Shown piece after piece: positions 4,548-25,617 of a stretch of DNA of 64,000 nucleotides. Where the stretch lies: positions 20,786-84,785 of IMG/VR virus record IMGVR_UViG_3300037419_001469; one strand, 5' to 3'. The position numbers and the translations under genes are program-made. The notes below the pieces were generated by a model. The model was not told the DNA's origin. It worked only from the letters and a program-made list of their open reading frames with translations, and made no database searches. The stretch's first letter is position 1, and each line of letters opens with the position of its first letter. Source of the stretch: a virus (taxonomy: Duplodnaviria > Caudoviricetes).

Positions 4548-4596
4548 GATCTTCTCCATTTACAGTAAAGGAATGCCCATCTCGTCAATGGGCCTA

Positions 4597-5040
4597 CTAC
4601 GGCACGACAACACCAGGATTTAGCCTGGCTTCCAGCTCTTTCACCTTCTTGCGCAGCTCGTCGACCTCCTGCACCAGTGCAAGCACGAACCCGTCCCCGG
4701 TCACGTCCCGGTTCCACGGCTCGCCGTGGCGGAACACTTCAGTCTTGCCATCCTGGTGCATGACATAGCGGTACTTGCCGTCATAGACGGTGACGTCATA
4801 CATAGGGATTGGCGCGAAATCGGCAAAGCTGTGACCAAGCTTCTCGATCATGGCGCCCTTGCACGAATCGCACAGCGACATGCTGCCGCGCTCGCCATCG
4901 CTTCCCGCCTTGCGTTCGGTGGCGATAACGGTCGGCTTGCTCGTGCAGCGTACCCAGGGACGCGGTCCGAGCGTCATGAAGCTGCCTTCCTGGATCAGTG
5001 CCTGGCACTGGTTCGGGTCCGGTGGGATCAGGTCAGCCAT
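4597..5040 (-). CDS. hypothetical protein (Cys-containing N-half, C-terminal coiled coil)
   Basis: Overlaps the stop of the upstream gene; genome-typical codon usage. Confidence 0.65.
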   Translation of the reverse strand: MADLIPPDPNQCQALIQEGSFMTLGPRPWVRCTSKPTVIATERKAGSDGERGSMSLCDSCKGAMIEKLGHSFADFAPIPMYDVTVYDGKYRYVMHQDGKTEVFRHGEPWNRDVTGDGFVLALVQEVDELRKKVKELEARLNPGVVVP

Positions 5041-5398
5041 ACACGATCTCCCCGAAGCACGCGACCTGCACGATGACGTCAGCCGCGTCGGCGTCGATGT
5101 AGCAGCCGATGTTGTCCTGGTCACCAATCGAGTCGCGGATCCATTGCCGGATCTGGTCGTTGACCTGGACCTCGCCGTTGGCCAGCTGGCGCACGGCGGC
5201 GCGAATCTGGTCATAGTCGACGGAGACTGCCTTATCTCTGTCTGGCATGATCTTCCAGCCAACGACCTTGTTGTCATCATCCAGCAGATGATGTGCCCCG
5301 GCGCACCAGTAATTGATACCGCCTTCGAAAGCGGTGTCCATGACATCAACCACATACCGATCAGTGATCGTGGTTGACGGTGTGATCAAGGTGTCCAT
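5033..5398 (-). CDS. hypothetical phage protein
   Basis: GAGGAG upstream of ATG 5398; C-terminal DADAADVIVQVACFGEIVYG motif that I recall from phage hypotheticals. Confidence 0.7.
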   Translation of the reverse strand: MDTLITPSTTITDRYVVDVMDTAFEGGINYWCAGAHHLLDDDNKVVGWKIMPDRDKAVSVDYDQIRAAVRQLANGEVQVNDQIRQWIRDSIGDQDNIGCYIDADAADVIVQVACFGEIVYG

Positions 5399-5605
5399 CT
5401 TTTCTCTCCTCGGAGAATTCGACATAGAAGCCGTCCCGTTCAGCACGCACTGTCCCATGCGCCTCGGATGACCGGAACGGATGCTGGTAAAACAGCACAT
5501 AGGCCATCGAGTTCGCACAGAACAAGGCACGAATGCGAGATCGATATTCGATGTACTTGTGGGCCGAGCCATCGCAGCGGCCGAAAGAGACGGTGTACAT
5601 AATTG

Positions 5606-6760
5606 CTATCCAATATAGGTTTTGCGCGGCGGGTCTTCCCCGTACAGGTACTCGCGCAGCTCGTTGACGAAGCCAACAGGATCGTTACGTGCGTATCGGA
5701 CCATTTCCTCCCTGGTCATGAAGCCGTCCGGGTCATCGAGATCGATGTATCCGCCATAGCCGAGATCGAACATGCTGCGGCTGAACTGCCGCGCCTCGGC
5801 CGGGTCCCTCTTAGTGGGAAGCGATTCCCAATCAAGAGAGATGCAGGCATCGCGCAGCGCCATCAGGTGACCGACATCGAGCATTTCGCTGCCGGTGTGC
5901 TCCTTCTGGTAGCCGACCGAGACGTTCGTGCATTCAGGGATGCACTCGATGTATTCCTTCGTGTCGGTATAGACGCCGCTATCGTCCGGGCTGTAAAAGA
6001 AATTGAAGTTGAGCGTATTCAGGGCGTCGGCCAGGGCCAGCGCGAATTCATCCGAGCAGCAAGGCTCTCCGCCCTGGTGCGAGATGATGGAATCGGTCGC
6101 CTTGCGGTCGAACGCGATGGCCCGATTAAACTGCCGCAGGAAGTCGGGCTCGTATTGGGCCATCCAGGACGCGCCGATGCCCCCACACTCCTCGCCGCGG
6201 GTGATGACATAAGTGCCTGGCACGCCTGCGTCGATCATCTCCAGCAGCAGCCACACGCCGGCCCCGTCATCCGCGCCCAGGGGCTCGCCGTCTTCCTTGA
6301 AGATGTGCCTCAGGATCGGGTCGTAGGACAGCACCTGCGGCCCTTCCTTGCGGTGGACGGTGTCGACGTGGGCCGAGAACAGCGTTTTCGAATTCTCTCC
6401 CACGGTGATCACATAAGCGGCGATCTGCCGGTCCCCGTAGATGGCCGGGTTGTAGGGTTTGATATACCTCTCGCACCATGCCCGCTCGGCATCGGAATCG
6501 TGCGGACGCTTCACGCCGAGCATGGCAAACAGCCGCGCGTCCAGGCCCTCCGGCAGAGACTTGACCTGCGCCTTCGGCGGTGGCAGCGGTTCCGGCTCGG
6601 CCTTCTTGAACCAGGCCGTGGGCAGCCCCGTGTGCAGTGGGTTCGGCGCCTTGCTGATCTTGGTGGTCTTGACCTCGATGTCGGGCTTGGAGGTCTTGGA
6701 TGTCTTGGAGGACTTCGGGGCGCTCGTGTTGAGCACGCCCTTCTTTTCGGCGGTTTTCAT
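5606..6760 (-). CDS. M28/M20-family Zn-dependent peptidase-like hydrolase
   Basis: Metal ligands in order: SAHVDT, LGADDGAG, RGEE, FDR, GYQKEHT; ATGA-coupled to the upstream gene. Confidence 0.85.
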   Translation of the reverse strand: MKTAEKKGVLNTSAPKSSKTSKTSKPDIEVKTTKISKAPNPLHTGLPTAWFKKAEPEPLPPPKAQVKSLPEGLDARLFAMLGVKRPHDSDAERAWCERYIKPYNPAIYGDRQIAAYVITVGENSKTLFSAHVDTVHRKEGPQVLSYDPILRHIFKEDGEPLGADDGAGVWLLLEMIDAGVPGTYVITRGEECGGIGASWMAQYEPDFLRQFNRAIAFDRKATDSIISHQGGEPCCSDEFALALADALNTLNFNFFYSPDDSGVYTDTKEYIECIPECTNVSVGYQKEHTGSEMLDVGHLMALRDACISLDWESLPTKRDPAEARQFSRSMFDLGYGGYIDLDDPDGFMTREEMVRYARNDPVGFVNELREYLYGEDPPRKTYIG

Positions 6761-8571
6761 GCGCACACCTCTTGTTCAGGTTCATTTACAGTAAATGGGA
6801 CAACTGCATCAATGCGTGCAGCGTGAACAAGTTCGGGGTGGAATAGGCTCCAATCCCATGTTCCGTCCGGGCACTGAATCATATCCGCTTCCTTGAACCA
6901 ATAAAAGCCCCCGGGTGACATATCGACAACAGCTTCGTCTTGATCCCACGCAAGCTTTCCGTCGATCAGCTCGACGGTATCGGCAACGTGCGCGAATTCC
7001 CCGTTGTAGAGCATGCGGCAGTCGGTGTCATTGAGGAGCATCCAACTCTCGTCGGCGCACTGCACGCAGTCCTCCTCCAAGGCGTAGTCGCCGTTATAGA
7101 GCTCGACCACGCCCTCATCGTCGTCCAAGGCCCAATCGCCTCCGACCAGTTCGACCACGCTGCTATCCGAAGACAAGGCCCACCGCTCATCGCCATCCTT
7201 GTCATCGATCAGCTGGACCAGGTCGTCGTGGCCATCGGAGGCATAGCGGCCGTCGTACAACTCGGTGCAGTAGTCCTTGTCCTGGTAATCGCCGTCGACG
7301 TCGAGCACGATGCCGTGGTAATCCAGCACGCTCTGCCGGTCCAGATACCAGTTCTCCCCGACCTGGATGGCGCTGCCGATGCGGACATAGGTTTCATCGC
7401 CATGCTGGCCGTAATAGGCATAAACATAGTGCTCGTCCCTGCAGTAGCTGCAGATGTCATGATCATGGTGCTCGGAATAGCTCAGGTCATCGTTATGGAC
7501 GCGGGAATCGCAGCAGTCGCAGTAGCTGTAGTGCTCGTCGTCGTCATCGTTATCGTCGTCACCATCCATGATGCCGTTGGCATTGGCCGCATCCTTGCCC
7601 GTGTCGCTCCAGAGGAAGTAATCGCGCTGCGTGGCCGAGTCGTAAAGCGGCCCCTCGACTCTCTGGTGGCAGCCGTCGAGGTACGGCATCAGCCAGCCGC
7701 CGCAGTCGAGGTCGATGCACTGCAGCTTGATGCCGAGGCCGCCGAATCCGTCGACCTTCTCGTAGCCCAGGTCCTTCAGGCGCGAAGCCAGGATCTCGCC
7801 ATCGTTGCCGTAGTAGCGCACGAAGGCCTTGTTCTTCATGTCGCACAGGCAGCGCGCGGAAGCGCCGTTGGGCGAGCCGAGGTAGGCAAGGCCAAGACGG
7901 TACGAGCCGTCCGCCTCCTGGTAGCCGTAGACCTCGACCGGGTGCATGTTATCGACGCGGCAATCGTCCCCTTCCATGCAGGACTGGATGCCGCAGTTCT
8001 CGTACACCTCGCGGATCGCCTCCGGCCCGACCGCCCACTTGATCTCGTCCTGGTGGATGTTATTGGCGATGTCGCGGATCTGCTCCTGCGTCAGCACGTC
8101 CGCATAGAACTTCTGCAGGTAGCGGCCTAGCTTCATTTTCACTTGGCGATCGGCCAGCCCATACTGGTGGCTCGGCGTGTACGCGATCATCGTCGGGTCG
8201 TCGGTCGACAGGTGGACGAAGTGGTACACATAGCGCAGCCGGACATTCTCCGGCAGGTTGCGCAGGCCGTAAATCAGATTCGACACCGGCTGGTAGTGGC
8301 CGTGCCAGAAACGCATCGCCTCGCGGTACAGCCACCAGTTGAGGTCGTTCGGCTCGGCATTGCAGTAATCCTTGAACCGATCAAGGTCTTCGGGCGCGAC
8401 GCCCTCCGGAGGGTAATTGCACATCGGGCTTTGCTTGACGCGGAAAGGATGGCCGACCGGGCTCCTGTGCGTCTCCAGATACCAGTGCGTGGTCCAGAAG
8501 TAATCGGTCTCCCGGTCGACATAGACCCGGTAATCCTCGAACGTCTTGATCGGGGTGATGTTCTCAGCCAT
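6757..8571 (-). CDS. large hypothetical protein with CxxC/His Zn-ribbon and acidic beta-repeats
   Basis: 604-aa ORF; YCDCCD...ICSYC, followed by repeated VEL(Y/V)xGxWA-like units. Confidence 0.8.
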   Translation of the reverse strand: MAENITPIKTFEDYRVYVDRETDYFWTTHWYLETHRSPVGHPFRVKQSPMCNYPPEGVAPEDLDRFKDYCNAEPNDLNWWLYREAMRFWHGHYQPVSNLIYGLRNLPENVRLRYVYHFVHLSTDDPTMIAYTPSHQYGLADRQVKMKLGRYLQKFYADVLTQEQIRDIANNIHQDEIKWAVGPEAIREVYENCGIQSCMEGDDCRVDNMHPVEVYGYQEADGSYRLGLAYLGSPNGASARCLCDMKNKAFVRYYGNDGEILASRLKDLGYEKVDGFGGLGIKLQCIDLDCGGWLMPYLDGCHQRVEGPLYDSATQRDYFLWSDTGKDAANANGIMDGDDDNDDDDEHYSYCDCCDSRVHNDDLSYSEHHDHDICSYCRDEHYVYAYYGQHGDETYVRIGSAIQVGENWYLDRQSVLDYHGIVLDVDGDYQDKDYCTELYDGRYASDGHDDLVQLIDDKDGDERWALSSDSSVVELVGGDWALDDDEGVVELYNGDYALEEDCVQCADESWMLLNDTDCRMLYNGEFAHVADTVELIDGKLAWDQDEAVVDMSPGGFYWFKEADMIQCPDGTWDWSLFHPELVHAARIDAVVPFTVNEPEQEVCA

Positions 8572-8664
8572 TTTGCTACTCCTTCGAGTGAAATTAAGCC
8601 CACAGTGGGCGGCTAGAAACGGGCCTCAATGGCGAGGCCCTGGGAATCACACTTAGTGGGGATC

Positions 8665-8985
8665 TCATCCCATTGCGCGGACTTGGCGCTGCACCTCGGA
8701 CAGCGGGATCGGAGACCAGTACAGGTCGCGCTCGATGGTCAAGCCTCCGGGTCCGCGGATCATCTCGAGTTCGTCGATCGAGACATAGCCAAGCTCGGCC
8801 TCGTCGGCGTAATTCAGCAGGCAGAAGCCGAAGGCCAGGCGCTTCTCGGGGTCGTACTCGGTCAGCCACCACGTTGCCATGGCCCAAGGACAGAACAGCT
8901 TGACGACGCATTGCGGGTCCGGGATGCGCTCCTGCGAGTACAGCGGCGGCAAGAGCTTGGCCGCTTCGTTATCGATCAGCGTCAT
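8665..8985 (-). CDS. DUF2958-like protein
   Basis: VVKLFCPWAMATWWLTEYDP...AFG...ELGYVSIDELE...IERDLYW pattern. Confidence 0.8.
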   Translation of the reverse strand: MTLIDNEAAKLLPPLYSQERIPDPQCVVKLFCPWAMATWWLTEYDPEKRLAFGFCLLNYADEAELGYVSIDELEMIRGPGGLTIERDLYWSPIPLSEVQRQVRAMG

Positions 8986-9272
8986 TGCCGGCCTCCGCAC
9001 GTCGGGATCACGTTGTCTTTCGGCTGCACCAGGTGCAGCACGATCTCGAGCGATGCGGCCAGCTCCATCGCCGCGTCGTGGTCGCTGAAGTCGGCCACCG
9101 ATTCGATGCCGCCGACTTCGCCGCGGTAATGCAGCGCCACCATCCAGGCGTTGGCCTGGGCTTCGTCAGTGGGCAGCAGGGCGCCATTCATGTATCGCAT
9201 CGGAAGCAGCTCGACGGCATCGAAGTCCAGCAGGCTGCCGGTGAACTCAATACGGGCAAAGGTCTCAGCCAT
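8982..9272 (-). CDS. hypothetical protein
   Basis: Tightly coupled ORF (ATGA overlap). Confidence 0.7.
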   Translation of the reverse strand: MAETFARIEFTGSLLDFDAVELLPMRYMNGALLPTDEAQANAWMVALHYRGEVGGIESVADFSDHDAAMELAASLEIVLHLVQPKDNVIPTCGGRQ

Positions 9273-9618
9273 GATCGGTCTCCCTGATCTTGGCCTCGAC
9301 TTCCTCGACGGCCTTCGTGTACGGTGCGATACCGCCGCTGTTCAAGCCGTCGACGTTGAGCAGGAAGGCCAGCTGGTGGCAGATCAGGCGGACCGCGGTG
9401 TCCTGGCAGACGGAGTCGGTGCCGCGGTAATCGGCCGATCTCGCGAACTCGTCGATGGCCGCGACCAGCGAGCGGGCCACGCCGCTCGGATTGCAGGCGC
9501 CCTGCGAGATCGCGATCGCATCGCGGTATCTCTTGCCGAGTTCGTTCTTGCTGATGACGATATGGGTCATGTCCAGGGTCCGGAGTGCGGACTGGACAAG
9601 CGTGATGTCTCCGCTCAT
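9265..9618 (-). CDS. hypothetical protein
   Basis: Start follows a family-A palindrome/GGAG RBS. Confidence 0.7.
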   Translation of the reverse strand: MSGDITLVQSALRTLDMTHIVISKNELGKRYRDAIAISQGACNPSGVARSLVAAIDEFARSADYRGTDSVCQDTAVRLICHQLAFLLNVDGLNSGGIAPYTKAVEEVEAKIRETDHG

Positions 9619-9644
9619 GGGAGCCTCCATTTACAGTAAACGGG

Positions 9645-9896
9645 TTAAAGGCGATCGACCAGCGACTCGATCTCGGGTTGGGGCAAGGTGGTGACTTCCT
9701 TCTTCGGATCGGCCCCGCGATCCTCGAAGTATTTGCCGACCACGCGCGAGGTCGTGCGGCTGTGCCTGGTCTGCGACTTGAAGTAGCCGTGCTCCGGGCG
9801 GTAGCCCGCGACCGGCGTGTCGTGGTGAAACAGCAGCTCGGTGCCGTCGTGGAGCGTGACGGCGATGGCGTTGTTGTGGAATTGGGCGACCATCAT
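9645..9896 (-). CDS. hypothetical phage protein
   Basis: Coupled start; HDTPVAG...SRTTSR motif. Confidence 0.65.
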   Translation of the reverse strand: MMVAQFHNNAIAVTLHDGTELLFHHDTPVAGYRPEHGYFKSQTRHSRTTSRVVGKYFEDRGADPKKEVTTLPQPEIESLVDRL

Positions 9897-10204
9897 TTCA
9901 GTGTCTCCAACAGGATGTCGATCCAGCGCAGTTCTTCCTGCTTCAACCTCATGTGAGGAACCAGGGCCGGCGTGATCGTGGCCAGCACGCCGCGCGCGGA
10001 GGTCAAGGCGGCGACCAGGGCCTCGTGGTTGTTGACGGCCTTGACGATGAATTCGACATTGGCTCGCCGCTTGTCGTCGAACGTGTGGAAACAGGCAACC
10101 TCCCTGCCATCGGCGCCTGCGATGCTCAGTGGGTAGTAATAGGTTCCCCCGGTCCTGATTTCCCACGGTGTCGGTGCCGGTGCGTTTTCAGTTCCCATGA
10201 TCAT
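9893..10204 (-). CDS. hypothetical protein
   Basis: In-operon ORF with GGAG RBS. Confidence 0.65.
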   Translation of the reverse strand: MIMGTENAPAPTPWEIRTGGTYYYPLSIAGADGREVACFHTFDDKRRANVEFIVKAVNNHEALVAALTSARGVLATITPALVPHMRLKQEELRWIDILLETLK

Positions 10205-10472
10205 CTCCGATCAGCTTTGCGTTGATGGCGGCGATGAACACCGACTTCTTCGCTTCGTCATCGAGGAAGTACGGCTCGGGCATGCCGAGATCCTTGGCCA
10301 GCTCGCGCACATCGATGTCGTCGCGCTCATCGCCGTTCAGCACCGGATCTAGGGTGTAGAAGCAGAAGTTGACGCCCTGCTCGATTTCGTCATCCTTGTA
10401 GGTGTGGTACACCTTGACGCCGTCATGCTCGATGAACAGTTCGGCGTCGACTTCGGTTGTCAGGTATGGCAT
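10188..10472 (-). CDS. hypothetical protein (acidic)
   Basis: GGAGG RBS, operon packing. Confidence 0.7.
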   Translation of the reverse strand: MPYLTTEVDAELFIEHDGVKVYHTYKDDEIEQGVNFCFYTLDPVLNGDERDDIDVRELAKDLGMPEPYFLDDEAKKSVFIAAINAKLIGDDHGN

Positions 10473-10481
10473 GTGGGCCTC

Positions 10482-10889: not shown

Positions 10890-10890
10890 G

Positions 10891-11744: not shown

Positions 11745-11753
11745 GATTGCCTC

Positions 11754-12212
11754 CTATGCGTGGTACATCACGAATCGCGAATACAGCTCGCCCAACAGGT
11801 CCGAGTTGACCGGAGACGAGGCCCGAATCCAGACGCGGTGCGATCGCTGCATCAGCTCGATCAGGCCACGCGCAGTGGCGTTGTCCGCCCACAGCATCGT
11901 GTGAGTGACGACGAGCAGGTCCTGGGCCGGGATCGCGTAGCTTTTTTCGACGGCATGCTTCGGCGCCATCAGGTTGACGTAGCGCGGCGCCGAATGCGCC
12001 CGGGCCTTGTCCCTTCTCCAGAAGTGCTGCAGCGTCGTCGGCGTGATGCCGAGCACGCGGCTGCCGGCCGGCAGGGTTTCGATGGCGGCCAGCATCGGGC
12101 TGGTCTGGTCCCGGCTCACGTCCGCATAGAAAATCACATGCGAGTTCTTCGTCAGGAATTCGGCGAGGTCGGCCTGTTCGACGTCCAGGGTTGGCGAGGT
12201 AATGCTGTTCAT
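11754..12212 (-). CDS. hypothetical protein
   Basis: ATG 12212 overlaps the stop of the upstream gene. Confidence 0.6.
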   Translation of the reverse strand: MNSITSPTLDVEQADLAEFLTKNSHVIFYADVSRDQTSPMLAAIETLPAGSRVLGITPTTLQHFWRRDKARAHSAPRYVNLMAPKHAVEKSYAIPAQDLLVVTHTMLWADNATARGLIELMQRSHRVWIRASSPVNSDLLGELYSRFVMYHA

Positions 12213-12637
12213 TGCTTGGGCTCCGGAAGGTAAGTTCGTGTGATGGCAGGCAGCAGCAAGCCGTGCTGCAGGGCCAGGTCGTTGAGGGCTTGCGCGACGA
12301 CGTGGAGATTGCGGATGCGGGTGCCGTAAGCGCCGTCGTCTTCGCGTGGCATGTGGGAGTCGTGGATTTCCTGCAGCTGGCACATCAGCCTTGGATGCTG
12401 CATCCAGTCCATGTCGACGCCGTCGCGGCGCAACTTCGAAATCACGGTGAAGGCGCCGACGCCTTCGAATGCATCCCTGTAGGCATAGTCCGGGATCATC
12501 ACGCCGACTGCGCACTTGTTGCCCGCCTCGTCTCGGTAGCAGCAGCCGATGCCCTCGTCGCCGCGCTCGCCCCAGGCTGCGACCTTTTGCGCGAACAGGT
12601 GAATGCAGACCTTGTCGAAAATTTCTTGCTTGGTCAT
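12209..12637 (-). CDS. hypothetical phage protein
   Basis: MTKQEIFDKV..HL..Q...CCYR...KCAVG motif; start follows a family-A palindrome. Confidence 0.75.
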   Translation of the reverse strand: MTKQEIFDKVCIHLFAQKVAAWGERGDEGIGCCYRDEAGNKCAVGVMIPDYAYRDAFEGVGAFTVISKLRRDGVDMDWMQHPRLMCQLQEIHDSHMPREDDGAYGTRIRNLHVVAQALNDLALQHGLLLPAITRTYLPEPKQ

Positions 12638-12663
12638 GGTCATCTCCATTTACGGTAAATGGT

Positions 12664-13660: not shown

Positions 13661-14746
13661 TCACTCCACGAATCGGTAGTGGGTGATGCGGCAAGGATCG
13701 CCAGGCGGCTCGTCCCACAACCATCTTTCTGGCAATTGCGACATGGTCTCGGTGCCGTCTTTCAGTCGGACCTGGATCTTCCTGGTGTTGAGCGGAGCGC
13801 CGATTGGGCAGGACCGAATGATGTCTCCGACCTCTATCCAACCCTTGCTCGGATTGCGCCACACCATGCGGTACGCGACGATGCGGCCGGTGTTCCCGGG
13901 AGGCAGGTTCCAGACGAAGGACTTGGCGGTGTTGCAGACCTCGGTGCCATCGGCAAGCCGGACCTCGATCAGCTGATTGCCCTCGTATACCGGGGACTTC
14001 ATGTACATGCCAGGCACGTTGATCCACGGCCCGTACTCGGTGTCGGGCTCGACCTCTGCCTCCGGCTTGACCTCGATCTGTGGCGCCGGCTCGGGCATCG
14101 CTGCATCCGCGGCACAGATATAACCCTTGTGGCTGAACCTCCAGGCGACGACGCGCCCAGGGTCTTCCGGATTGCATTCCCAATCGACGTGGTCGACGGA
14201 TGCAAATTCGCTGATGGTGCCGTCCCTGAACAACGCCTCGAATCGGATTCCGTCATCGAGGTCCGGCTTGATCGTGGCATCGTCAGAGATCGTGATCCAG
14301 CCCTCTCCAGGCGGCACGCGCAAGGGTTTGATCTCAGCCTCCGCCTTCGGCGCCTGGTACAGCGCCTCACCGGCCAGGAAGCGGCGCGCGCCGGTCATGA
14401 AGTCATCCAGGAATTCGCGCACCTCGGTACGCGGCATCAGGATGACATCACCGATGCGTTTGTCGAAGTGCTCGACCTCCGCCGCCCAATGCGCAATGAA
14501 CCAGCGCGCATCGGCCTCGCCCTTGAACAAGGGTTGCCCCTTGGAGGCGTAATAGTCAACGATCTCCATCGCCTCGATCACGTTCACGCCGTACTGGCAT
14601 TCGAGGAAGGTCGTCATGTGGGCCGTGACGTCGGCATTCGAGTTGCACAGCGCAAGCAGCATGTCGTGGTAGCACGCATCGATCTTGATCACGCGCTTGT
14701 CGGCCGTCTCGAAGGTGTCGGTCACGGTTGGGTATATCGGTGTCAT
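13661..14746 (-). CDS. hypothetical protein with three tandem W..EVRLxDG..W..IxAYR-type domains
   Basis: Internal triplicated ~60-aa domain; start follows a family-A palindrome. Confidence 0.75.
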   Translation of the reverse strand: MTPIYPTVTDTFETADKRVIKIDACYHDMLLALCNSNADVTAHMTTFLECQYGVNVIEAMEIVDYYASKGQPLFKGEADARWFIAHWAAEVEHFDKRIGDVILMPRTEVREFLDDFMTGARRFLAGEALYQAPKAEAEIKPLRVPPGEGWITISDDATIKPDLDDGIRFEALFRDGTISEFASVDHVDWECNPEDPGRVVAWRFSHKGYICAADAAMPEPAPQIEVKPEAEVEPDTEYGPWINVPGMYMKSPVYEGNQLIEVRLADGTEVCNTAKSFVWNLPPGNTGRIVAYRMVWRNPSKGWIEVGDIIRSCPIGAPLNTRKIQVRLKDGTETMSQLPERWLWDEPPGDPCRITHYRFVE

Positions 14747-14776
14747 GTGGGTCTCCATTTACGGTAAATGGCTTGG

Positions 14777-15254: not shown

Positions 15255-15812
15255 TCAGCCTCCATTACTCAGTTCAGCTTCGCGCTGCGCGATCGCATAT
15301 TCGAGGCGGGCGATGGCAAGGTCCTTGTGATGCTGGTATCCGAGGTGAGACGTTCCCTTGGACAGAGGAAGACCGTGATCCGCAATCAGCATCCGGTCGT
15401 GAGTGCCGCCGCCATAGGTCGAGAACAGACGATCGTAGGCATCCTTGCCGAACAGGGCAGCCATTGCGCCCTCCCTCTTATCCCCATTCTCGTCGAGCGG
15501 CGCAACATCCTCCGCCGTCACGAAGTGCGTGATGCATTCGCTTTTCTCGATCCACATGCCCTGCTTCTGGAAATAGTCGTACAGGGAAATGGTGCCGGCC
15601 AGGCAAAACAGCGTGCCGCATCCGGTCTCGTTCGTGAAAAACGCGAGGTTGAACTTCTCCACGGGCGCCGCCTTTGCGATTTCCAGCGCGACGTGCAGGT
15701 TGCGCAGGATCGGGTCTTTCACACTGAGTATGGCCGGGTCGATGATGGTGGCGATGGGCTTCGTCACGATCTCGCCATAGGTCTTGATCGGGAATTGCAG
15801 TTCGGTGTTCAT
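15255..15812 (-). CDS. hypothetical protein, paralog of 18412-18987
   Basis: CGTLFCLAGT..LYDYFQKQG and DRLFSTYG shared with the paralog. Confidence 0.75.
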   Translation of the reverse strand: MNTELQFPIKTYGEIVTKPIATIIDPAILSVKDPILRNLHVALEIAKAAPVEKFNLAFFTNETGCGTLFCLAGTISLYDYFQKQGMWIEKSECITHFVTAEDVAPLDENGDKREGAMAALFGKDAYDRLFSTYGGGTHDRMLIADHGLPLSKGTSHLGYQHHKDLAIARLEYAIAQREAELSNGG

Positions 15813-16542: not shown

Positions 16543-16723
16543 GATCGTCCTCCGTATCGGCAGCCAGGTACTCATTGCCTCGCTCGATGGCAATGTCCTC
16601 CAGCTGGCCAGCATCGGCCTCCCCGACTTCCTCCGGGGTCCAGATGACAACGACATACCCGGCGTCGCGCAGCTGGCGCACGGTCTTGTTCCAGATATCC
16701 ACGTCAGATCCTTTCCGGGACAT
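16535..16723 (-). CDS. small hypothetical protein
   Basis: Overlapping operon ORF. Confidence 0.55.
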   Translation of the reverse strand: MSRKGSDVDIWNKTVRQLRDAGYVVVIWTPEEVGEADAGQLEDIAIERGNEYLAADTEDDHG

Positions 16724-16919
16724 AGTCCCGATTCCTGGCACGCAAGCAGGCAAGCTCCCGGGCTTGCCGCTTGGTCGTGCCGTAGTCGATGCAGAAGGAA
16801 AAGTAGGTCTCGCGCGCGGCCCCGGTCTTACCGGCAGCCGCGCGCCTGGCCTCTATCGTGGTGAAGTAGATCGCCTCCTTGTGATGCCCTTCGAGGGCGA
16901 TGCAGTGTAGGCGGATCAT
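16704..16919 (-). CDS. small hypothetical protein, paralog of 17444-17695
   Basis: LHCIALEG...TGAARETYF. Confidence 0.65.
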   Translation of the reverse strand: MIRLHCIALEGHHKEAIYFTTIEARRAAAGKTGAARETYFSFCIDYGTTKRQARELACLRARNRDYVPERI

Positions 16920-17156: not shown

Positions 17157-17447
17157 TCACCTCCACACCTGAACCTGGCCATCCGCGACCATCTGGCGCT
17201 CGATCGCGCAGTCTCGCCTCCAGTGGTGGTCAGGCTCCTCATAGGTGCCATCCTTGAGGAAGTAGCCGAGGTCGAGGATGTCGTACCCGCGGACCTCTTT
17301 CTCATCCGGGTATTGGGCGCGGTATTCCTCCAGGTCGAAGCGCGCGATGTCGGCATACTCGGTGTTGTTGCCGTGGCTGATAACGACGCCGGTTTGGGCG
17401 TCGATCGTGATGTCGCCGTGGCTGGAATGGACGGTGGCGGTTTTCAT
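17157..17447 (-). CDS. hypothetical protein
   Basis: GGAGG RBS, ATGA overlap. Confidence 0.7.
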   Translation of the reverse strand: MKTATVHSSHGDITIDAQTGVVISHGNNTEYADIARFDLEEYRAQYPDEKEVRGYDILDLGYFLKDGTYEEPDHHWRRDCAIERQMVADGQVQVWR

Positions 17448-17695
17448 GGCGCGACCTCCGCGAATGCCGGGTTCTTCCACGAGCCTTCGGCCACGTAATC
17501 CTTTTCCCAGGCGGCGTCATCGGCCAGCTCGGTCATCTCGTCATCATTGAGGCCGTCTGCGACCTCCAGGGTGAAGTAGATTTCCTCCTCGGCCCCGGTA
17601 TGCGTTGCGGCGGCGTCGCGGTCCGCCCGGGTGTCGTACCAATCCACGCCGGTCGGCCCATTGCCCTCAAGGGCGATGCAGTAAAGGGTTTTCAT
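17444..17695 (-). CDS. small hypothetical protein, paralog of 16704-16919
   Basis: LYCIALEG...TGAEEEIYF. Confidence 0.65.
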   Translation of the reverse strand: MKTLYCIALEGNGPTGVDWYDTRADRDAAATHTGAEEEIYFTLEVADGLNDDEMTELADDAAWEKDYVAEGSWKNPAFAEVAP

Positions 17696-18075
17696 AGCGG
17701 CTCCCTGTCCCAATCCGACTTCGCATCGTCGGCCAGCAGCTTGACCAGGTACGCATTGAACTGCGCGCGGGTCTTGGTCGAGACGTTGGTGCGCAAACCG
17801 ACCAGGGTCTTCAGCTCGGCCGCCGTGAAGTATTGCGGCTTGATCTGGTCGTTGTCGTCCACGCGCTTGCGCATGGCGCCCCGGGCATGCTCGTACATGT
17901 GGATGCGCTGATAGACCTCGTGCAGATTGGCCGTGGTGATCTCGGTCATACTCACCGACAGCAGCGCCCAAATCGCCGCCTCCAGGTGCGGCTTCAGCGT
18001 GACCATGCCGCCTCCGGCATCGTCGAGGATGGCCGTCTTGTCTTCGACGGCGGAATAGTCGTAATCAAGGCTCAT
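17692..18075 (-). CDS. hypothetical protein
   Basis: Start follows a family-A palindrome/GGAG. Confidence 0.75.
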   Translation of the reverse strand: MSLDYDYSAVEDKTAILDDAGGGMVTLKPHLEAAIWALLSVSMTEITTANLHEVYQRIHMYEHARGAMRKRVDDNDQIKPQYFTAAELKTLVGLRTNVSTKTRAQFNAYLVKLLADDAKSDWDREPL

Positions 18076-18107
18076 GACACTTCTCCATTTACAGTAAATG
18101 CGGGTAG

Positions 18108-18411: not shown

Positions 18412-18987
18412 TCAGCCGCCGAACGTGCGATCCAGCTCGTGCTCGATCCTGGCAATGGCCAGCGCCTTGTGGTCGGCATTGGTCTCGTGGCCCTGCAGCG
18501 GCAGGCCGTGATACGCGATCAGCTCGGCGTCATAGCGGCCCTCGCCATAGGTCGAGAACAGGCGGTCGAAGGCAAGGTCGCGCATTGAAAACGGCGCGTT
18601 GTCATGGTCGGTGCCGCCGAAGATGCGGTTCAGGGTGGCGTCCATGCCGTAGTTGGCCTCGAAAAGGGCGAAGCGCCCGCCGCGGTGCCGGCCGGAGCTG
18701 GCCTCGATGTAGATGCCCTGCTGCTGAAAATAGTCATACAGCGCGGCGGTGCCGGCCAGGCAGAACATGGTCCCGCAGGCGGGCTCGAACTCGCCAGTCG
18801 GCCTTCCGTCTTCCGTGTGCTTTTCATCGACACCGCCGTAGGCGAAATCGGCCAGGTTGAAACGCTCGACATCTGCCGCCTTGGCGATGGCCAGTAGCAC
18901 GCGCAGGTTGCGGCGCACAGGGTCGGACTCAGGAATCGAGGCCGGGTCGATGATGTTCTTGATCGGGAACGTGACGAGGTGTTTCAT
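18412..18987 (-). CDS. hypothetical protein, paralog of 15255-15812
   Basis: CGTMFCLAGT..LYDYFQQQG; start follows a family-A palindrome. Confidence 0.75.
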   Translation of the reverse strand: MKHLVTFPIKNIIDPASIPESDPVRRNLRVLLAIAKAADVERFNLADFAYGGVDEKHTEDGRPTGEFEPACGTMFCLAGTAALYDYFQQQGIYIEASSGRHRGGRFALFEANYGMDATLNRIFGGTDHDNAPFSMRDLAFDRLFSTYGEGRYDAELIAYHGLPLQGHETNADHKALAIARIEHELDRTFGG

Positions 18988-19023
18988 GTGGGTCTCCATT
19001 TACAGTAAATGGGTGGATAGGGA

Positions 19024-19674: not shown

Positions 19675-19794
19675 TTCCTTTGGCGATGGCGGTGGCGAGC
19701 AGCAAGCCGGCAAGGGCCATCACAACCAGGCCGGCAAACAGGGACAGGATGAAAACGGACTCCGCCTCCATCCCGATGAACAGTTGGATCCACC

Positions 19795-19953
19795 TCACAA
19801 CTTTGCGACGAGCCAGCAGACCGCACCTCCGATAGCAACATAGGCGGCGGTCCAGCCCTGGAATGAGAAGGCGGCGAACCAGTCGTGAATCTGCTTGACC
19901 GTGTCGTGCGCCTGGCCGGTGGCGATCGCCACCAGGATGTCAAAGGCATCCAT
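19795..19953 (-). CDS. small membrane protein
   Basis: GGAG RBS; C-terminal hydrophobic helix. Confidence 0.5.
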   Translation of the reverse strand: MDAFDILVAIATGQAHDTVKQIHDWFAAFSFQGWTAAYVAIGGAVCWLVAKL

Positions 19954-20350
19954 GAGAGCTCCTTTCGTCCTGATCCATGCGCTCGGCCTCGTCTTCCCAC
20001 GAGTAGCAGGTCGAGCCATAGGCGCACGGTTGCTGCGTCCAGCCCATGCGGGCAAAGAAAGACATATCTCCCCGGCTCAACTCGAACACCTCCCGGACGA
20101 TCTCCAGCGTGTTCTCGGCCAGGCCCCTCGCCTCGCGCCTCCGGTCGCGGAACAGCGGATGGCCCTCCTCGCTGCGCCGCACCTGCACGCCCTTGAAATA
20201 GGACGGATGCGACCAGCGTCGGCCATCGGCGTGCTCGGCAACGACGAAATAGGCTTCTCCATAGAACGGGGTGCCGTCCTCGGAAACGCCAGCGTGATAG
20301 GACTCGGAAGCGATGCCAAAGCTGATTTGGGTTTGCATGATGGACTCCAA
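19940..20350 (-). CDS. hypothetical protein
   Basis: In-operon ORF; start uncertain (20350 or 20338). Confidence 0.65.
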   Translation of the reverse strand: MESIMQTQISFGIASESYHAGVSEDGTPFYGEAYFVVAEHADGRRWSHPSYFKGVQVRRSEEGHPLFRDRRREARGLAENTLEIVREVFELSRGDMSFFARMGWTQQPCAYGSTCYSWEDEAERMDQDERSSHGCL

Positions 20351-20403
20351 CAGTTGGAGAGGTGGGCTCCCACTCAGTGTGGGAGGGTGAGGTCAGACTG
20401 AGT

Positions 20404-20919
20404 TCAGGCTGTCGTCAAGCCTTTGTCAGCATCCGGGCAAAACTGTGGCGCTTCGGCGCCGGCATCGGCCAGCTCCGCCGCTTCGATCTCCGCCAACTCC
20501 GCCTCCGCCGCCTCGCTCAAGGGTTCGAGTGGCGCGACATACGGAGCTTCGACCAGGGCATTGTGGTCCCGGTTCAGGCGGATGATGTCGGAGATGACTT
20601 TGGCCTCGATCAGGTCCAGGGCCGGCAGGCCGGTCTTGTCATACGGGGAGGCATAGGCGGAGAAGACGCTGCGCAGCTGGAATTCGTAGCTGTTCGGGCT
20701 GATGGAATTGAGGCCGAAATTGAGGTCCATCTTGGGGCCATTCAGAGGAATCGATTCCTGCCTCAGGCAGCGCATGAACTCCGGATGCGTGATGCGCTCA
20801 TGGTAGAGGGCGCAGACCAGGTCTCCGATACGCACGCGGCGCTCCGCGTCCATGTCGATTTGCATGCCCTGGAAGATGCCGAGTACGGTGTCGGTTAAAG
20901 CTTGCGTTTTCGTTTTCAT
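20404..20919 (-). CDS. hypothetical protein, first gene after an AT-rich control region
   Basis: AGGAG RBS; acidic C-terminus. Confidence 0.7.
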   Translation of the reverse strand: MKTKTQALTDTVLGIFQGMQIDMDAERRVRIGDLVCALYHERITHPEFMRCLRQESIPLNGPKMDLNFGLNSISPNSYEFQLRSVFSAYASPYDKTGLPALDLIEAKVISDIIRLNRDHNALVEAPYVAPLEPLSEAAEAELAEIEAAELADAGAEAPQFCPDADKGLTTA

Positions 20920-21194
20920 AGTCTCTTTCTCCTAAACGTTAGGGTTTAATTAAGCCCATTTACGGTAAATGGGTGCTTCCGACTGGTAACTTACAGTTGC
21001 GAAATGGCACTATCACAAACATCCCTGCTTCGACATCGAATTACCGTTTGGTATTGATTATAGTCGGAGATTTTCGCGTATCGCTATGGATTTTAGGATG
21101 GTCGAGTGATTTTGTCGGGTTTTGTCCTACATTACCTCCTCTCAACATGTTTGGCGTAATTCAAACTATTAGTACATTAACTTTTCAGTTTGCA

Positions 21195-21974
21195 TTAACT
21201 GTTGGAGAACATGAATTCCTTGCGGCTGCCATCGGCATAGTGCTTGGCATCGTACTCGGCCAGCGTCATGCCCAACGCCTCTGCCGCCTTCTGCCGCCTC
21301 TGCCGGTCAGCCTCCAATTGTGACAAGTGGTGTTGGGCGATGATCTCGTCCGTCTCTCCGTAGGGCCTTGTCGGCCTCAGAAGATCCTGGCCGCGTTGGT
21401 GGCGGCGGCGCAGCTCGTGGAAATTCACCGCGGAGATCGTCGTGACTTCGATCTCGGTCGTGACCAGGGCATCGGCCTCGTCGCTCCACTCGCGCACGCG
21501 CAAGGTGTAGGGGCCGTAGCCCTCGGGCAGATCCTCGCCTTGGTGCGCCTCCAGGTATTGCGCCAGCTGCCGCAGCGTCATCAGCTGCCCATTGTTGAAC
21601 GGCGTCTTGACCAGGATCGTTTTCGCCTGCACCGATTTGGCCTCGGCACGGGTTACCCATACGGCATTGGTCGGGTTGAAGCCGACTTTCAGGTTCTTGC
21701 GCCCGAGATAGATGCGGCGAAAGCGCATCGGCTTGGATTCGTCATCGTCCCAGGCCGGGTACATGTCCTCGACGAAGGCATGGAAATCGAACCAGCGCCG
21801 CATCACGAACGCACCCTTGGCGCCCAGGGCGCTCCAGTGCTTCGATTTCGGGTCGGCGCAGCCGTCGATCATCTTTTTCCATTCCCGGTACAGCGGATGG
21901 TTCGAGGAGCCGCGCGGTGCCGATGGCGGCGGGTAATCGAGGTCGGCAAGGTCGGCCGGTTGGACGGTTTCCAT
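21195..21974 (-). CDS. HNH-endonuclease-like protein with degenerate active site
   Basis: HPLYREWKKM..C.DP...W..F..FVEDM scaffold of phage HNH proteins, but LDRIDN/NCRWAT..EQxxN positions read LGRKNL/NAVWVT..EAKSV. Confidence 0.65.
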   Translation of the reverse strand: METVQPADLADLDYPPPSAPRGSSNHPLYREWKKMIDGCADPKSKHWSALGAKGAFVMRRWFDFHAFVEDMYPAWDDDESKPMRFRRIYLGRKNLKVGFNPTNAVWVTRAEAKSVQAKTILVKTPFNNGQLMTLRQLAQYLEAHQGEDLPEGYGPYTLRVREWSDEADALVTTEIEVTTISAVNFHELRRRHQRGQDLLRPTRPYGETDEIIAQHHLSQLEADRQRRQKAAEALGMTLAEYDAKHYADGSRKEFMFSNS

Positions 21975-22031
21975 GAAATCTCCATTTACAGTAAAGGACT
22001 AGGCGGATAAGGCTTGGCATTCCGGCTTGGC

Positions 22032-22062
22032 ATTATACGGCCGAAAATGGCTTGTCCCGCAA
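22032..22062 (-). promoter_or_regulatory. putative leftward sigma70 promoter
   Basis: Perfect TATAAT (22032-22037) with TTGCGG 19 bp upstream; GGCTTGGCATT direct repeat (22011, 22024) over the start region. Confidence 0.5.
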
Positions 22063-23120
22063 GTATGAGCAAATGTTGAGAAAATATTTTCGAAGGATTT
22101 TTGAATTGATCAAACTTGGATCACAAAAATATGCCGGCTAAAAAAATTCTCAACATTTGTTTATACTTGAATGTCATTTATAAGAAAAAAATTTAATCCT
22201 TATGAATCCTTGACTTATAAATGTTGTTATATTTGAAATCGGTCGACCTTGCGCTTGTGAATCTGGCAATTTCGATGGCAGTGTGACAAGACAATAACCA
22301 TGCTTGCGGTAGGGCCGATTTCGTTGTCAGAGTGCTATGCCAAGTACCGAGTGCAGAATGGTCGTGCCATTTGCTCATACTTGGGTAGTTTTTCCATAGC
22401 ACGAGCTTGGCGGGAATAAGTGTCGGGAATAACTGGTGAAATGGGCTGTCTGCGCAGGGCGCTCGGGAGAACGCCCTGGGGAGACACCTTTCGGTGTCGG
22501 TGGGACTGGCGCGCGTCTCCCGACGCTCGCCACGGTAGGCTCCAGGACGCTTGCCATCCCGGCAATCGCCCCTCGTCCTTGTGCTCCCGTGCTGGCGGCA
22601 GAGCCGTGTGCCGCTCGGGGAGCCGCATCGTCGAATGTCGCTGAGGTGACAGTCGTTCAGAGCTTCGAGGCCGCCAAGAACGCTTGATGGAGCAGGGGCT
22701 GACAACGCTCGAACCCACACGTTGCCAGTGCCGGCCGCCCGCGCGTATCGCTACGCCTGAGGCAGTGGCCGGGTCCGCTTGCGCGGCTCTACTCCAGGGG
22801 TCACCGGAATCTCACGACCGGCGCTTGCGCGCCGCATCCTTCGATGCCGGAATCGGCCCGGGCGATGCTGCTGCCCGGGCCTATCCTGATAATCAAATTG
22901 TCAGATCATGGGTTCATCCGCGCGCCAGGGGCGATCATCACCACCAGCTGGTGCGCGAAGCCGCAGGGCCGCGCCTGATCTGCGCATGGCCCTGCAGGAA
23001 CCGCCCGTTCATGTCACCGCCGCGCCGCGCGAGGCCGAATCGGTGATACCGGGTCGATTGGTTCATCCTGCCGAAGAATCGGCATTGGCAAGCGCGGGGC
23101 TTGCCGATGCGGACTCGCAT

Positions 23121-23303
23121 TTACTGTAAATGGCGCGGCCGGTGAGATTCGAGACACGCCTTGATGGCGGCGCAGTAGCGTCTGTCGCATTCCTTGACAT
23201 CGCCATCGCTGCACATGCCAGCGGCGCGCATGCGCCGCGCCTCTTCCAGTTCTTCGCCATACTGATCTGCCAGCGCGCCAAGGCGCTTTTGTTCGCTTGT
23301 CAT
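23121..23303 (-). CDS. small hypothetical protein (60 aa)
   Basis: GGGAGG RBS inside a family-A copy; TAA stop lies inside the next family-A copy. Confidence 0.55.
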   Translation of the reverse strand: MTSEQKRLGALADQYGEELEEARRMRAAGMCSDGDVKECDRRYCAAIKACLESHRPRHLQ

Positions 23304-23316
23304 GTCAGCCTCCCAT

Positions 23317-23457
23317 TTACTGTAAATGGCGGCGCTGGCCGCGCTGTTTGGCGGCGCGCATCGCGTCGCGCACGTTGATAGCCAGCGCGCCGAGGGCGAT
23401 GCCGCAAGCGGCGGCGGCAAGCGCGAGATTGCCCGCCGCATGAATGATCGTTTCCAT
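23317..23457 (-). CDS. small putative membrane protein (46 aa)
   Basis: Manual translation METIIHAAGNLALAAACGIALGALAINV...RHLQ; GGAGG RBS; stop inside a family-A copy. Confidence 0.5.
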   Translation of the reverse strand: METIIHAAGNLALAAAACGIALGALAINVRDAMRAAKQRGQRRHLQ

Positions 23458-23777
23458 GATTTGCTGCCTCCTATGCGATGGCAGGCGGCGCATTTACTGT
23501 AAATGGCGCGCTGCCTGCCGATTGCGGCGCGATAGCGCGAAAGTTCGCGGGCAAGCATGCACAAGCGCGGAAAGAATCCGCCCTATTGCGCCGCCTGCCG
23601 CGCCAAATCGCCCCATAGCGCCGCCAAATATGCCAGCGCGGCAGAATGCCCGCGCCAGCGCCGAAAATGCCGTATAGCGCCGCTATGGCGCTGCCAGCAT
23701 AAGAAAAGCGGCAGGGGTGATTGCTCACGCCTGCCGCCTTACTTATGCCGCCTGCCTTGCGGCAGGCGCTGAAGCGA

Positions 23778-24626
23778 TTACTTGCCGCGCTTGCCTTGCG
23801 GCGCGCTGCCTGCCGCTTCCAACTCTGCGACGCGCGCCGCCGCCGCATCGCGCGCCGCTTCCGCCGCCGCGAGATCGGCGCGCACAGCGGCCAGTTCTTC
23901 GCGCAACGTCAGCACAAGCGCCGCGTTCGCTTCGGCGGTTTCCAGCGCCCTTTTTTGCGCCGCCGCTTCATTGCGCGCCGCTTCTATGCGCCGCGATTGC
24001 TCATTGGCCGCGCCTTCCGCCGCCGCCTTTGCCGCCGCGATGCCGCCGCCGCTGAGGAGGGCGTCGCCTGCCGCCGCCCTTGCCGCTTCGAGCACTTCCG
24101 GCGCATCGAAACCGGAGGAACAGACGGTCTGCACGATGGCGGCAACGTCGCGCTGCACCTGCTCTGCCATGCGCGTTTTTTCTTCCGCCTCCGCCGCTTC
24201 CGCCGCCTTTTTATCCTGCGCCGCGATGCGAGAACGGGCGACGGCAATCGCGTTATACGCGGCGGTTTTGTCGGCATTCGTTGCCAGCGAGCCTTCCCTT
24301 GTCCCAAGGAAAGCGCCATGCCAGTCTGTCGGGGCGATGCCGCCATCGCCGCGCATCAAGGCTTGCATCATGGCAAGGCGCGACACGGAACGCGGCACCT
24401 CGAACAGTTCGCACAGCGTGATAGCGTCGCGCAGCGCGCCGTTTTCATCGCGGCAATTTTGTTCGACTGCCGCAGAGATGGTTTTCTTTGCGGCATCGAC
24501 GGTTTTTTTCGCGCCGTCAAGAATCGGTGCCGTGTCGCACAGTGCCTGCACAGCAGAGACGATTTGCTGATGCGTGACGGCAAGTGCTTTGTTGCTTTCC
24601 AGCGAGACGATATTTGCGGTTTTCAT
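23778..24626 (-). CDS. Ala-rich coiled-coil hypothetical protein, first large gene of the left arm
   Basis: AGGAG RBS; 282 aa; atypical AAA/GAA/GCG codon use. Confidence 0.7.
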   Translation of the reverse strand: MKTANIVSLESNKALAVTHQQIVSAVQALCDTAPILDGAKKTVDAAKKTISAAVEQNCRDENGALRDAITLCELFEVPRSVSRLAMMQALMRGDGGIAPTDWHGAFLGTREGSLATNADKTAAYNAIAVARSRIAAQDKKAAEAAEAEEKTRMAEQVQRDVAAIVQTVCSSGFDAPEVLEAARAAAGDALLSGGGIAAAKAAAEGAANEQSRRIEAARNEAAAQKRALETAEANAALVLTLREELAAVRADLAAAEAARDAAAARVAELEAAGSAPQGKRGK

Positions 24627-25617
24627 GACTAGCTCCTATGGATGAAGGTTAAGGCGCACAGCGCGCCGCTGCCTGCCGCGCCGCCCATTTACTGTAAAGG
24701 GCCGGCGCTTACTGCCGAGAAACTTACTACACTGCAACTACATCAAACCATCTACTACAGTGCCAAGCATAGGCCATCAAGGAATAGAACGCAAGGTTTA
24801 TCGAAAGACGACATGCCTAGTATGTATGACAGAGATCAAATGCACAGCATGTGCCGCCATGCCGTGCGCCATGTAGGAGGCGGCATGTAGCGCCGCCATA
24901 TATAAGGCAGCATGCGCCGCCGCCATGCCAGCGCCGCAAGGAAGATTGTTAATAGAATGTGTCAGAATAGATGCCCACAGGCAGCAACAATGTTAACTAA
25001 ATGTGTCATAAAAGATGCACACAGGCAAAGAAAAGACACAAAAGACAGGCAAAAGTTAACAATGTTGCCTATAAAGAATGCCCATAGGAGGCGCAAGGAA
25101 GGCGCATAGGCGGCGCGGCGCGCTGTGCATGCCGACATATTGCCGCCTGCCCGATCGTTCAACAGGGACGTTTTCCTGTATGTATATACAGGTGAAATTG
25201 CACTCAAGAATCGAAAAGACAGTCTGTAAATCAATGCTTATCAGACAGTTTAGCCACCCCGCCATTGTCCACCGGCAACTAATGAGCCATCTAAGTTGTT
25301 GCCGCAAAGACAATAGCCAGCGCCGCTGACCTTGCCCAGGAGCAATGTCATGCCTATAGGCAATGGCAGCGGCAGGGATGCTGCCAGCGCCGCCGCCACT
25401 GCCGCCGCCGCCACTGCCAGCGCCGACGCCGAGCACATTGCCAGGTGGAAACCTCGAGGCCGGATGGCAGCGGCAGCGTATAGCGGCGGCGGCAGTGCCG
25501 ACAGCGGCGGCAGCGCCAGAGACAGCGGCGGCGGCAGTGGCGGCGCGCATGCCGGGGAGGATGGCGGCGGCGGGGACGATGGCAGGGTGACGCCCTAGAC
25601 TTTGCCGATGGGACTAA

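Follow-up and report, generated by a model that had tools for sequence, protein, structure and literature searches.

The window analysed here is a 64,000-nucleotide (nt) stretch of tailed-phage DNA (Caudoviricetes), corresponding to bases 20786-84785 of the 84,785-bp IMG/VR virus record IMGVR_UViG_3300037419_001469, which has a completeness rating of 98%. It carries 13 copies of an exact 17-bp palindrome, here called family A, eight of which are fused to the Shine-Dalgarno (SD) sequence of the following gene. The reading we favour, with a probability of about 0.42, is that one phage-encoded protein, probably a dimer, would bind nucleic acid sequence-specifically at these copies and co-regulate a set of ORFan early genes; an operator acting on translation at the RNA level only is ranked second. 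The original prediction for this DNA, in which a single regulator switches about a dozen early units together, appears plausible but unproven.

Sequence and distribution of the palindrome

The core of family A, TTTACNGTAAA, has 13 exact matches in the 64-kb window, compared with 0.00 expected from 100 dinucleotide-preserving shuffles. The array of TTTAC-N-GTAAA sites spans 4.5-24.7 kb, and the exact search recovered the same coordinates as the original prediction, with no site further to the right. When the whole 17-mer was searched with up to three mismatches allowed, the identical 13 sites were returned and not a single degenerate extra; since nothing weaker appears at this tolerance, family A is sharply bounded. 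No copy was found in the other 20.8 kb of the virus record.

All neighbouring genes are coded on the minus strand, and in that reading the consensus of the copies is c-C-a-TTTAC-n-GTAAATG-g-R, or cCaTTTACnGTAAATGg when written in symmetric form. Positions 2, 4-8 and 10-16 of this reading are invariant, and ten core positions are constant across the 13 copies despite unrelated flanks. The centre base is free (T in six copies, C in three and A in four), the outer positions of the palindrome vary symmetrically, and position 18 is a purine in 13/13 copies, while the aligned copies hold no information content 5' of the motif. The geometry is thus that of a single 8+1+8 palindrome whose 3' end overlaps the SD in eight copies, and the orientation of a site can be read only from the flanking purine or GGAG. 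The motif forms an A/T island of 11-13 nt within DNA of 60% GC, directly 5' of the SD.

Genes were called with a model combining codon bias and ribosome-binding sites (RBSs). The minus strand carries every gene between genome bases 1 and 45,411; should the genome be circularly permuted, a further eight minus-strand genes at its right end would extend this leftward arm. The rightward genes are structural (terminase, portal, capsid and a 2,655-aa tape measure, PF10145) and are free of family-A copies, all 13 of which belong to the leftward early arm. The earlier description of the palindromes as punctuating only the left arm needs narrowing, as they occupy only the promoter-proximal 20 kb of a leftward arm of roughly 49 kb. 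Comparison by blastp with nine complete relatives divides this arm into two zones. The distal 25 kb, which contain no family-A copies, form a conserved replication module encoding a family A DNA polymerase, a ligase, an SbcC-like ATPase, a 5'-3' exonuclease, a thymidylate synthase, a 955-aa protein and an SNF2 helicase. In the promoter-proximal 20 kb (window 4.5-24.7 kb) there are about 44 genes, mostly small, for which the nine relatives offer almost no homologues and Pfam and PHROG almost no matches. The array coincides exactly with this block of ORFan genes, and its last palindrome, at the ribosome site of a ParB-like gene, stands on the border between the two zones.

Position of the copies relative to gene starts

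Twelve of the 13 copies are non-coding, in a region with a non-coding share of 12.7% (binomial P = 2e-10). Eight copies (4556, 9627, 12646, 14755, 18085, 18996, 21982 and 23313) end 7-9 nt before an ATG, and in the same eight a GGAG or GGGAGG overlaps the last two palindrome bases, so that the terminal GG of the palindrome opens the SD, as had been claimed. In four further copies the distance to the next start is 21, 32, 36 and 58 nt, and these starts have SDs of their own (AGGAG, or AAGAGG at 6782). Altogether, 5/13 copies do not adjoin an SD, being either 21-58 nt from a start or without a downstream gene. Of these five, 6782 lies inside the end of a gene, and 23117 precedes not a gene but a stretch without open reading frames (ORFs).

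Eight copies occupy gaps of 26-49 nt inside operons. The tight gaps contain little else: the palindrome begins 1-14 nt after a stop codon and is followed only by the SD spacer and the ATG, whereas at site 4556 the distance from stop to palindrome is 27 nt and includes a hairpin. The view that several copies fill the space between one stop and the next start is borne out by four copies, whose intergenic gaps measure 26-36 nt. Between SD and ATG, most spacer sequences bear no relation to each other, and the 7-9-nt register is therefore not a matter of simple common descent. A near-identical leader of about 29 nt is shared by sites 14755 and 18996, in front of unrelated genes. The individual sites are compiled in Table 1.

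Table 1. Family-A palindromes in window coordinates, with example copies of a second palindrome family in the last row
Position	Strand	Sequence	Context
4556..4572	-	TCCTTTACTGTAAATGG	8 nt before ATG of ParB-like gene 3456-4547; most distal copy
6782..6798	-	CCATTTACTGTAAATGA	within last codons of a 604-aa gene; 21 nt before ATG of 5606-6760, which has its own SD AAGAGG
9627..9643	-	CCGTTTACTGTAAATGG	fused to GGAGG; ATG 8 nt on (gene 9265-9618); 26-nt gap
12646..12662	-	CCATTTACCGTAAATGG (perfect)	fused to GGAG; ATG 8 nt on (gene 12209-12637); 26-nt gap
14755..14771	-	perfect	fused to GGAG; ATG 8 nt on (gene 13661-14746)
18085..18101	-	GCATTTACTGTAAATGG	fused to GGAG; ATG 9 nt on (gene 17692-18075)
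18996..19012	-	perfect	fused to GGAG; ATG 8 nt on (gene 18412-18987)
20956..20972	-	perfect	15 nt downstream of promoter-like TTGTGA-N17-TAAGTT; 36 nt before ATG of 20404-20919, which has its own AGGAG
21982..21998	-	TCCTTTACTGTAAATGG	fused to GGAG; ATG 7 nt on (HNH-like gene 21195-21974); TATAAT about 33 nt upstream
23117..23133	-	CCATTTACAGTAAATGC	its TAA closes a doubtful 60-aa ORF; followed by 1.1 kb without ORFs
23313..23329	-	perfect, centre A	fused to GGGAGG; ATG 9 nt on (60-aa ORF); its TAA closes a 46-aa ORF
23490..23506	-		tip of a longer GC-rich inverted repeat; 32 nt before the 46-aa ORF; 22 identical nt shared with 23117
24685..24701	-	CCCTTTACAGTAAATGG	GC-rich inverted flanks; 19 nt after -10-like TAAGTT; 58 nt before first early gene 23778-24626
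1933, 8650, 13369, 20371, 40213, 40230		TCCCACTNAGTGGGA	second palindrome family

The palindrome itself carries TAAATG, a stop codon running into a start codon. At sites 4556, 9627, 12646, 14755 and 18996, where the spacing is 8 nt, this internal ATG is in frame four codons upstream of the gene start and has no SD of its own. The ORFan block contains two paralogue pairs, 15255-15812 with 18412-18987 (45% identity) and 16704-16919 with 17444-17695 (40% identity), and just one member of the former pair has a family-A leader.

The interval 21999-23800 is unusual in composition: the 1.1-kb ORF-less stretch that follows palindrome 23117 is first GC-rich and dense in hairpins and then AT-rich. Palindromes 23117, 23313 and 23490 are carried by a local triplication with units of about 180-196 bp. 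Both tiny ORFs associated with these copies, of 60 and 46 aa, end in R-H-L-Q-stop because the palindrome supplies CAT TTA CAG TAA, and the two may not be genes. The AT-rich divergent control region between the arms contains, at 24939-25026, a tandem repeat of 44 bp with 80% identity, whose TTGTTAAY/AACATTGTT motifs make it a candidate for the operators of the main switch. A search for known RNA families and tRNAs found none.

RNA folding and promoter signals

As RNA, the palindrome can form a hairpin with an A/U-rich stem of 7 bp and a loop of 3 nt. The stability of this hairpin is low (-1.5 to -8 kcal/mol, mean z -0.7), and the fold predicted in context often lacks it. A C-U mismatch interrupts the stem in three copies, in which the flanking C/G is nevertheless kept. 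Among ten variant positions, seven break pairing and zero are compensatory. The bases flanking the loop, C8 and G10, are invariant, and the would-be loop centre is unconstrained.

No conserved -35 or -10 element was detected around the 13 sites. Counts of sigma-70 promoters and of terminators were at shuffle expectation and none was tied to the sites, and a promoter or terminator reading of this type was dropped. Three of the looser copies lie about 15-35 nt downstream of promoter-like hexamers (TAAGTT at 20956 and 24685, TATAAT at 21982), which would place these palindromes early in a 5' leader. Since conserved -35 and -10 elements are lacking and the gaps of the tight copies are too short to accommodate a promoter, the sites are not classical operators; they are internal to transcription units, as are stoperators (PMC9283540) and most cluster O repeats (PMC4351075). 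A box for LexA, TyrR or another host factor was also considered and dropped, as spacing and half-site order do not fit.

Start-linked modules in related phages

Relatives were gathered by alignment of the capsid protein, which has more than 1,000 homologues; some of these come from 76-89-kb contigs, and others are chromosomal, in Ferribacterium and Variovorax. These homologues suggest betaproteobacterial hosts and the existence of some temperate members. Capsid homologues at 76% identity were confined to contigs of 2-3 kb. None of 16 related virus records contains TTTACNGTAAA, and in the nine complete relatives no inverted pair of TTTAC and GTAAA was found at any spacing from 0 to 10. An exact-pattern scan of IMG/VR gave single matches only, mostly in AT-rich unrelated DNA and none in kin of the phage; among the matches listed for metagenome contigs and species genomes, the picture was likewise one of single sites in mostly AT-rich, unrelated DNA. 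Queries with early proteins found no close relatives, and megablast of the region gave no GenBank phage match. Within the sequence examined, the array appears to be specific to the present genome.

The relatives do possess leader modules of other kinds. Three of them (G012, G013 and G015) contain 22 modules composed of AACCCG, a stem-loop, 4-9 nt, GGAGTYCA, 1-5 nt and ATG. Folded sequence by sequence, their stems are 5-10 bp long, comprise 19 distinct sequences and have a mean z of -3.4 against shuffles. In G018, a fixed extended ribosome-binding box, ACCAAGGAACCACC, stands directly before at least 14 start codons. Given these hairpin modules and this box, start-linked leader modules are a trait of the lineage. 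In G012, G013 and G015 the structure is kept and the sequence is free; in family A it is the reverse.

A different repeat, the 11-mer CCCCGACAACG(TC), has 30 copies in G013 and 15 in G009. These are mostly intragenic and co-oriented with transcription, and many of the CCCCGACAACG copies are read as Pro-Asp-Asn. The divergent control region of G013 (49-51 kb) has a cluster of copies, which occur there in both orientations.

A proposed sequence-specific reader of the palindromes

An invariant dyad with a free centre, symmetric outer variation and no degenerate copies is typical of sites at which a dimeric protein binds duplex DNA, and the array would fit this description. At the same time, a register fixed at 7-9 nt despite unrelated spacers points to involvement of the ribosome site, although such a register could also result from compaction into short gaps. 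Reading of both the DNA and the SD-adjacent mRNA by one protein would reconcile the dyad signature with the ATG register. In the model we favour, one phage-encoded protein, probably a dimer, would recognise all 13 palindromes and co-regulate the accessory ORFan early genes, most likely by shutting them down. On the DNA, within transcription units, the bound protein could act as a roadblock or silencer in the manner of stoperators. As the 3' half of the palindrome is fused to the SD in eight copies, the same protein bound to the transcript could also block ribosome entry, as in the case of Aca2.

Several observations weigh against this model. A roadblock on DNA needs no 7-9-nt register with the ATG, even if short-gap compaction could yield one. 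No relative carries the motif (16 records; nine complete genomes). Searches of about 55 proteins against Pfam and/or PHROGs, together with PDB sequence searches, returned no regulator; the sole DNA-binding candidates among these proteins are a ParB-type helix-turn-helix (HTH), an HNH-like protein and a sub-threshold HTH in a 102-aa ORF. Moreover, a search of the genome for an integrase (PF00589) and an HTH_3 repressor found neither.

The sequence signature thus speaks for one sequence-specific reader, in line with the original prediction, while the four binders put forward there find no support. The ParB-like gene 3456-4547 (phrog_1033, 3e-39) encodes a ParB HTH and has a family-A copy on its own ribosome site, but a second palindrome tracks its closest homologues. 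This second family, TCCCACTNAGTGGGA with the core CACTNAGTG, has 23 copies genome-wide, in coding and non-coding DNA of both arms. Its variant CTACACTNAGTGTAG has five copies in G006 and seven in G007, compared with 0-1 in the seven other relatives, and G006 and G007 are the relatives with the closest ParB-like homologues (36% identity). Because of this co-occurrence, the second family would be the better candidate for the ParB site, and the ParB-like protein appears to fit it better than family A. Some second-family copies form the stem of terminator-like hairpins. The HNH-like protein (21195-21974) is conserved in G006 and G007, both of which are without family A, and 2659-3108 has no detectable domain. 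The product of 26881-27189 does have a predicted C-terminal HTH, but weak homologues occur in the motif-less G006 and G007. This plus-strand ORF of 102 aa is AT-rich (47% GC), is coupled through TGATG to a 215-aa ORF and was missed by GC3-based gene calling. Its predicted structure (pLDDT 88) consists of two long helices followed by the HTH, and fold comparison gave weak HTH matches only, all with E > 0.3.

Alternative readings

Control at the ribosome site can be exerted entirely on RNA, as exemplified by T4 RegA, T4 RegB and MS2 coat protein. A purely translational operator, in which the transcribed palindrome is bound by a protein, as a stem or single strand, or is cut there by a nuclease, is a possible but doubtful account of family A. 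It would draw on the 7-9-nt register held by 8/13 copies, with the last GG as SD start and mostly unrelated spacers, and on the three relatives in which a hairpin with a co-varying stem stands 4-9 nt before GGAGTYCA, which would make RNA structure at this place a lineage trait. The hairpin of family A is however weak, and in several contexts the predicted fold does not include it, the C-U mismatches and uncompensated variants do not preserve pairing, the invariance of C8 and G10 around a free loop centre is the reverse of usual loop recognition, and five copies are 21-58 nt from a start or have no gene downstream. RNA could also act without any protein reader if the copies paired with each other in trans: many RBSs could be masked, or marked for cleavage, by an abundant RNA, either leader or non-coding, transcribed from the 22.0-23.8-kb interval. 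The centre base is A in the four promoter-proximal leader or non-coding copies, U in 6/9 gene-proximal copies and C in three, and an A-centred leader copy with a U-centred copy would form a perfect 17-bp duplex with a cofold gain of 7-21 kcal/mol over the hairpins. This split is weak evidence, since three of the four A-centred copies belong to the local triplication, and pairing in trans seems highly improbable. It is also unlikely that the palindrome is an element acting in cis with no dedicated reader, either as an A/U-rich leader recruiting the ribosome through S1 or as a hairpin coupling termination to downstream translation. The A/T island immediately 5' of the SD in 60% GC DNA would suit such an element, as would the upstream stop 1-14 nt before the palindrome in tight copies. 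Neither mechanism, though, requires the palindrome to be exact and to stay invariant at 10-13 positions throughout the 13 copies. Other genes of the same arm have ordinary leaders, for example ACTAGGAGAAG, and five copies do not adjoin an SD.

The PeSL cassettes of T4-type phages provide a model for a different role, in which the palindromes would mainly be recombination linkers for the swapping of cassettes between co-infecting relatives, with regulation being secondary. The coincidence of the array with a hypervariable ORFan block, the leader shared by the unrelated genes at 14755 and 18996, the local duplications and the paralogue pairs are consistent with this role. We nevertheless consider it improbable, as no other genome or contig with the array appeared, among the matches listed, as a recombination partner, 17 bp is short for homologous exchange, and the comparable repeats of cluster O phages are not involved in rearrangements (PMC4351075). 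A ParB-family reader would be the ParB-like protein itself, loading at the 13 sites and silencing the early block in the manner of KorB. The gene is present and bears the last copy on its own ribosome site, and the KorB operator core, TTTAGCGGCTAAA, is likewise an odd-centred palindrome with TTTA...TAAA arms (PMC11790492). The second palindrome, CACTNAGTG, shared in variant form only with G006 and G007, is the better candidate site, however, and neither of these genomes has a family-A copy at any spacing, which makes such a reader decidedly unlikely. Finally, each palindrome could be a promoter in its own right, recognised by a phage-directed RNA polymerase or sigma factor, with transcription starting at the position-18 purine. 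The purine in 13/13 copies and the density of copies at the beginning of the arm agree with such a promoter, as does a layout of 17 bp followed by GGAGA, which we take to resemble T7-type promoters. A start at position 18 would, on the other hand, cut away half of a correctly spaced SD. There is no fit to the sigma-70 -10 or extended -10 consensus and no conserved -35, and dyad symmetry is no feature of such promoters. The search for a T7-like RNA polymerase gave no match, but it was uninformative, as the control genomes gave none either. A promoter function is accordingly rated very unlikely.

Comparison with known start-associated repeats

Start-associated repeats have, to our knowledge, been catalogued in actinobacteriophages since 2011 without a mechanism. 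The closest parallels are the start-associated sequences (SAS) and extended SAS (ESAS) of mycobacteriophage cluster K, which are also short repeats with a GGAG core, present in 11-19 copies in the non-structural half, before the starts of unrelated genes (PMC3203893). As in family A, the SAS mostly precede ATG starts and their function is unexplained (PMC3203893). They lie 3-7 bases upstream of the starts, compared with copies that end 7-9 nt before the ATG in 8/13 cases here and five that do not. The SAS are furthermore asymmetric 13-bp sequences, GGGATAGGAGCCC, in one orientation, having only GGAG in common with family A (PMC3203893). The ESAS consist of two imperfect 17-bp arms with a spacer of 4-13 bp, upstream of the SAS, in contrast to the 8-nt arms and 1-nt gap found here; these inverted repeats were judged by the authors to be more likely protein-binding DNA than RNA hairpins (PMC3203893). 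SAS and ESAS are conserved cluster-wide, whereas family A occurs in one genome only, with relatives in Betaproteobacteria.

The repeats of cluster O phages resemble family A in length (17 bp) and in combining inverted arms that are invariant with a centre that varies; they too occur in many mostly intergenic copies that are denser in the non-structural arm and not at promoters (PMC4351075). The phages are not obviously temperate, and a dimeric protein was predicted to bind the repeats, whose function is unexplained (PMC4351075). Their geometry is, however, 7+3+7 (TGTTCGGNNNCCGAACA), and the more than 30 copies are spread genome-wide, one third of them intragenic, with no close link to starts (PMC4351075). 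The stoperators of cluster A phages (L5 gp71 type) are similarly numerous sites in short intergenic gaps inside transcription units, where binding stops elongation rather than initiation (PMC9283540). Unlike the symmetric family A, they are 13-bp, asymmetric, transcription-oriented sites for a monomeric immunity repressor of temperate phages (PMC9283540).

Two further systems combine features relevant to the model of a single protein reader. The HTH dimer Aca2 binds both a DNA inverted repeat and a structured RBS-adjacent mRNA motif, and RBS-adjacent Aca motifs are also predicted between genes inside anti-defence operons (PMC13551039). The control of anti-CRISPR genes by Aca2 and Aca1 is similar in that the repeat lies directly at the RBS, as in the eight SD-fused copies here, and in that the targets are fast-evolving early accessory genes. 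Aca regulons differ in having one to three sites and a recognisable aca gene, compared with 13 sites here and no known Aca-family match in the Pfam and PHROG scans of about 55 proteins. In plasmid RK2, KorB is a ParB-family protein that silences genes at a distance, and its OB operators are dispersed, odd-centred palindromes with TTTA...TAAA arms (PMC11790492), as is the site carried by the ParB-like gene here. RK2 is a plasmid and not a phage, though, and no KorA-like partner was seen here. Among the analogies proposed originally, SAS/ESAS, a roadblock and an RBS-occluding hairpin are apt. The 17-bp lambdoid operators were rejected, as there are no conserved promoter elements around the sites, the sites do not cluster at promoters, eight of them lie in 26-49-nt gaps inside operons, and there is no HTH_3 protein.

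Family A shares defining features with SAS/ESAS, cluster O repeats and stoperators, yet it fails at least one for each of them. The array is a new example of the known, mechanistically unexplained start-associated repeats, and comes from an uncultivated phage of an unrelated, GC-rich lineage with relatives in Ferribacterium and Variovorax. It is an unusually clean case, with one exact palindrome confined to fast-evolving accessory early genes. If it is true that one regulator gates a dozen ORFan early genes, the motif marks one functional gene set, which may comprise host-takeover or anti-defence genes. Set against the structure-fixed hairpins of sister phages, the sequence-fixed family A also provides a means of telling readers of sequence from readers of structure.

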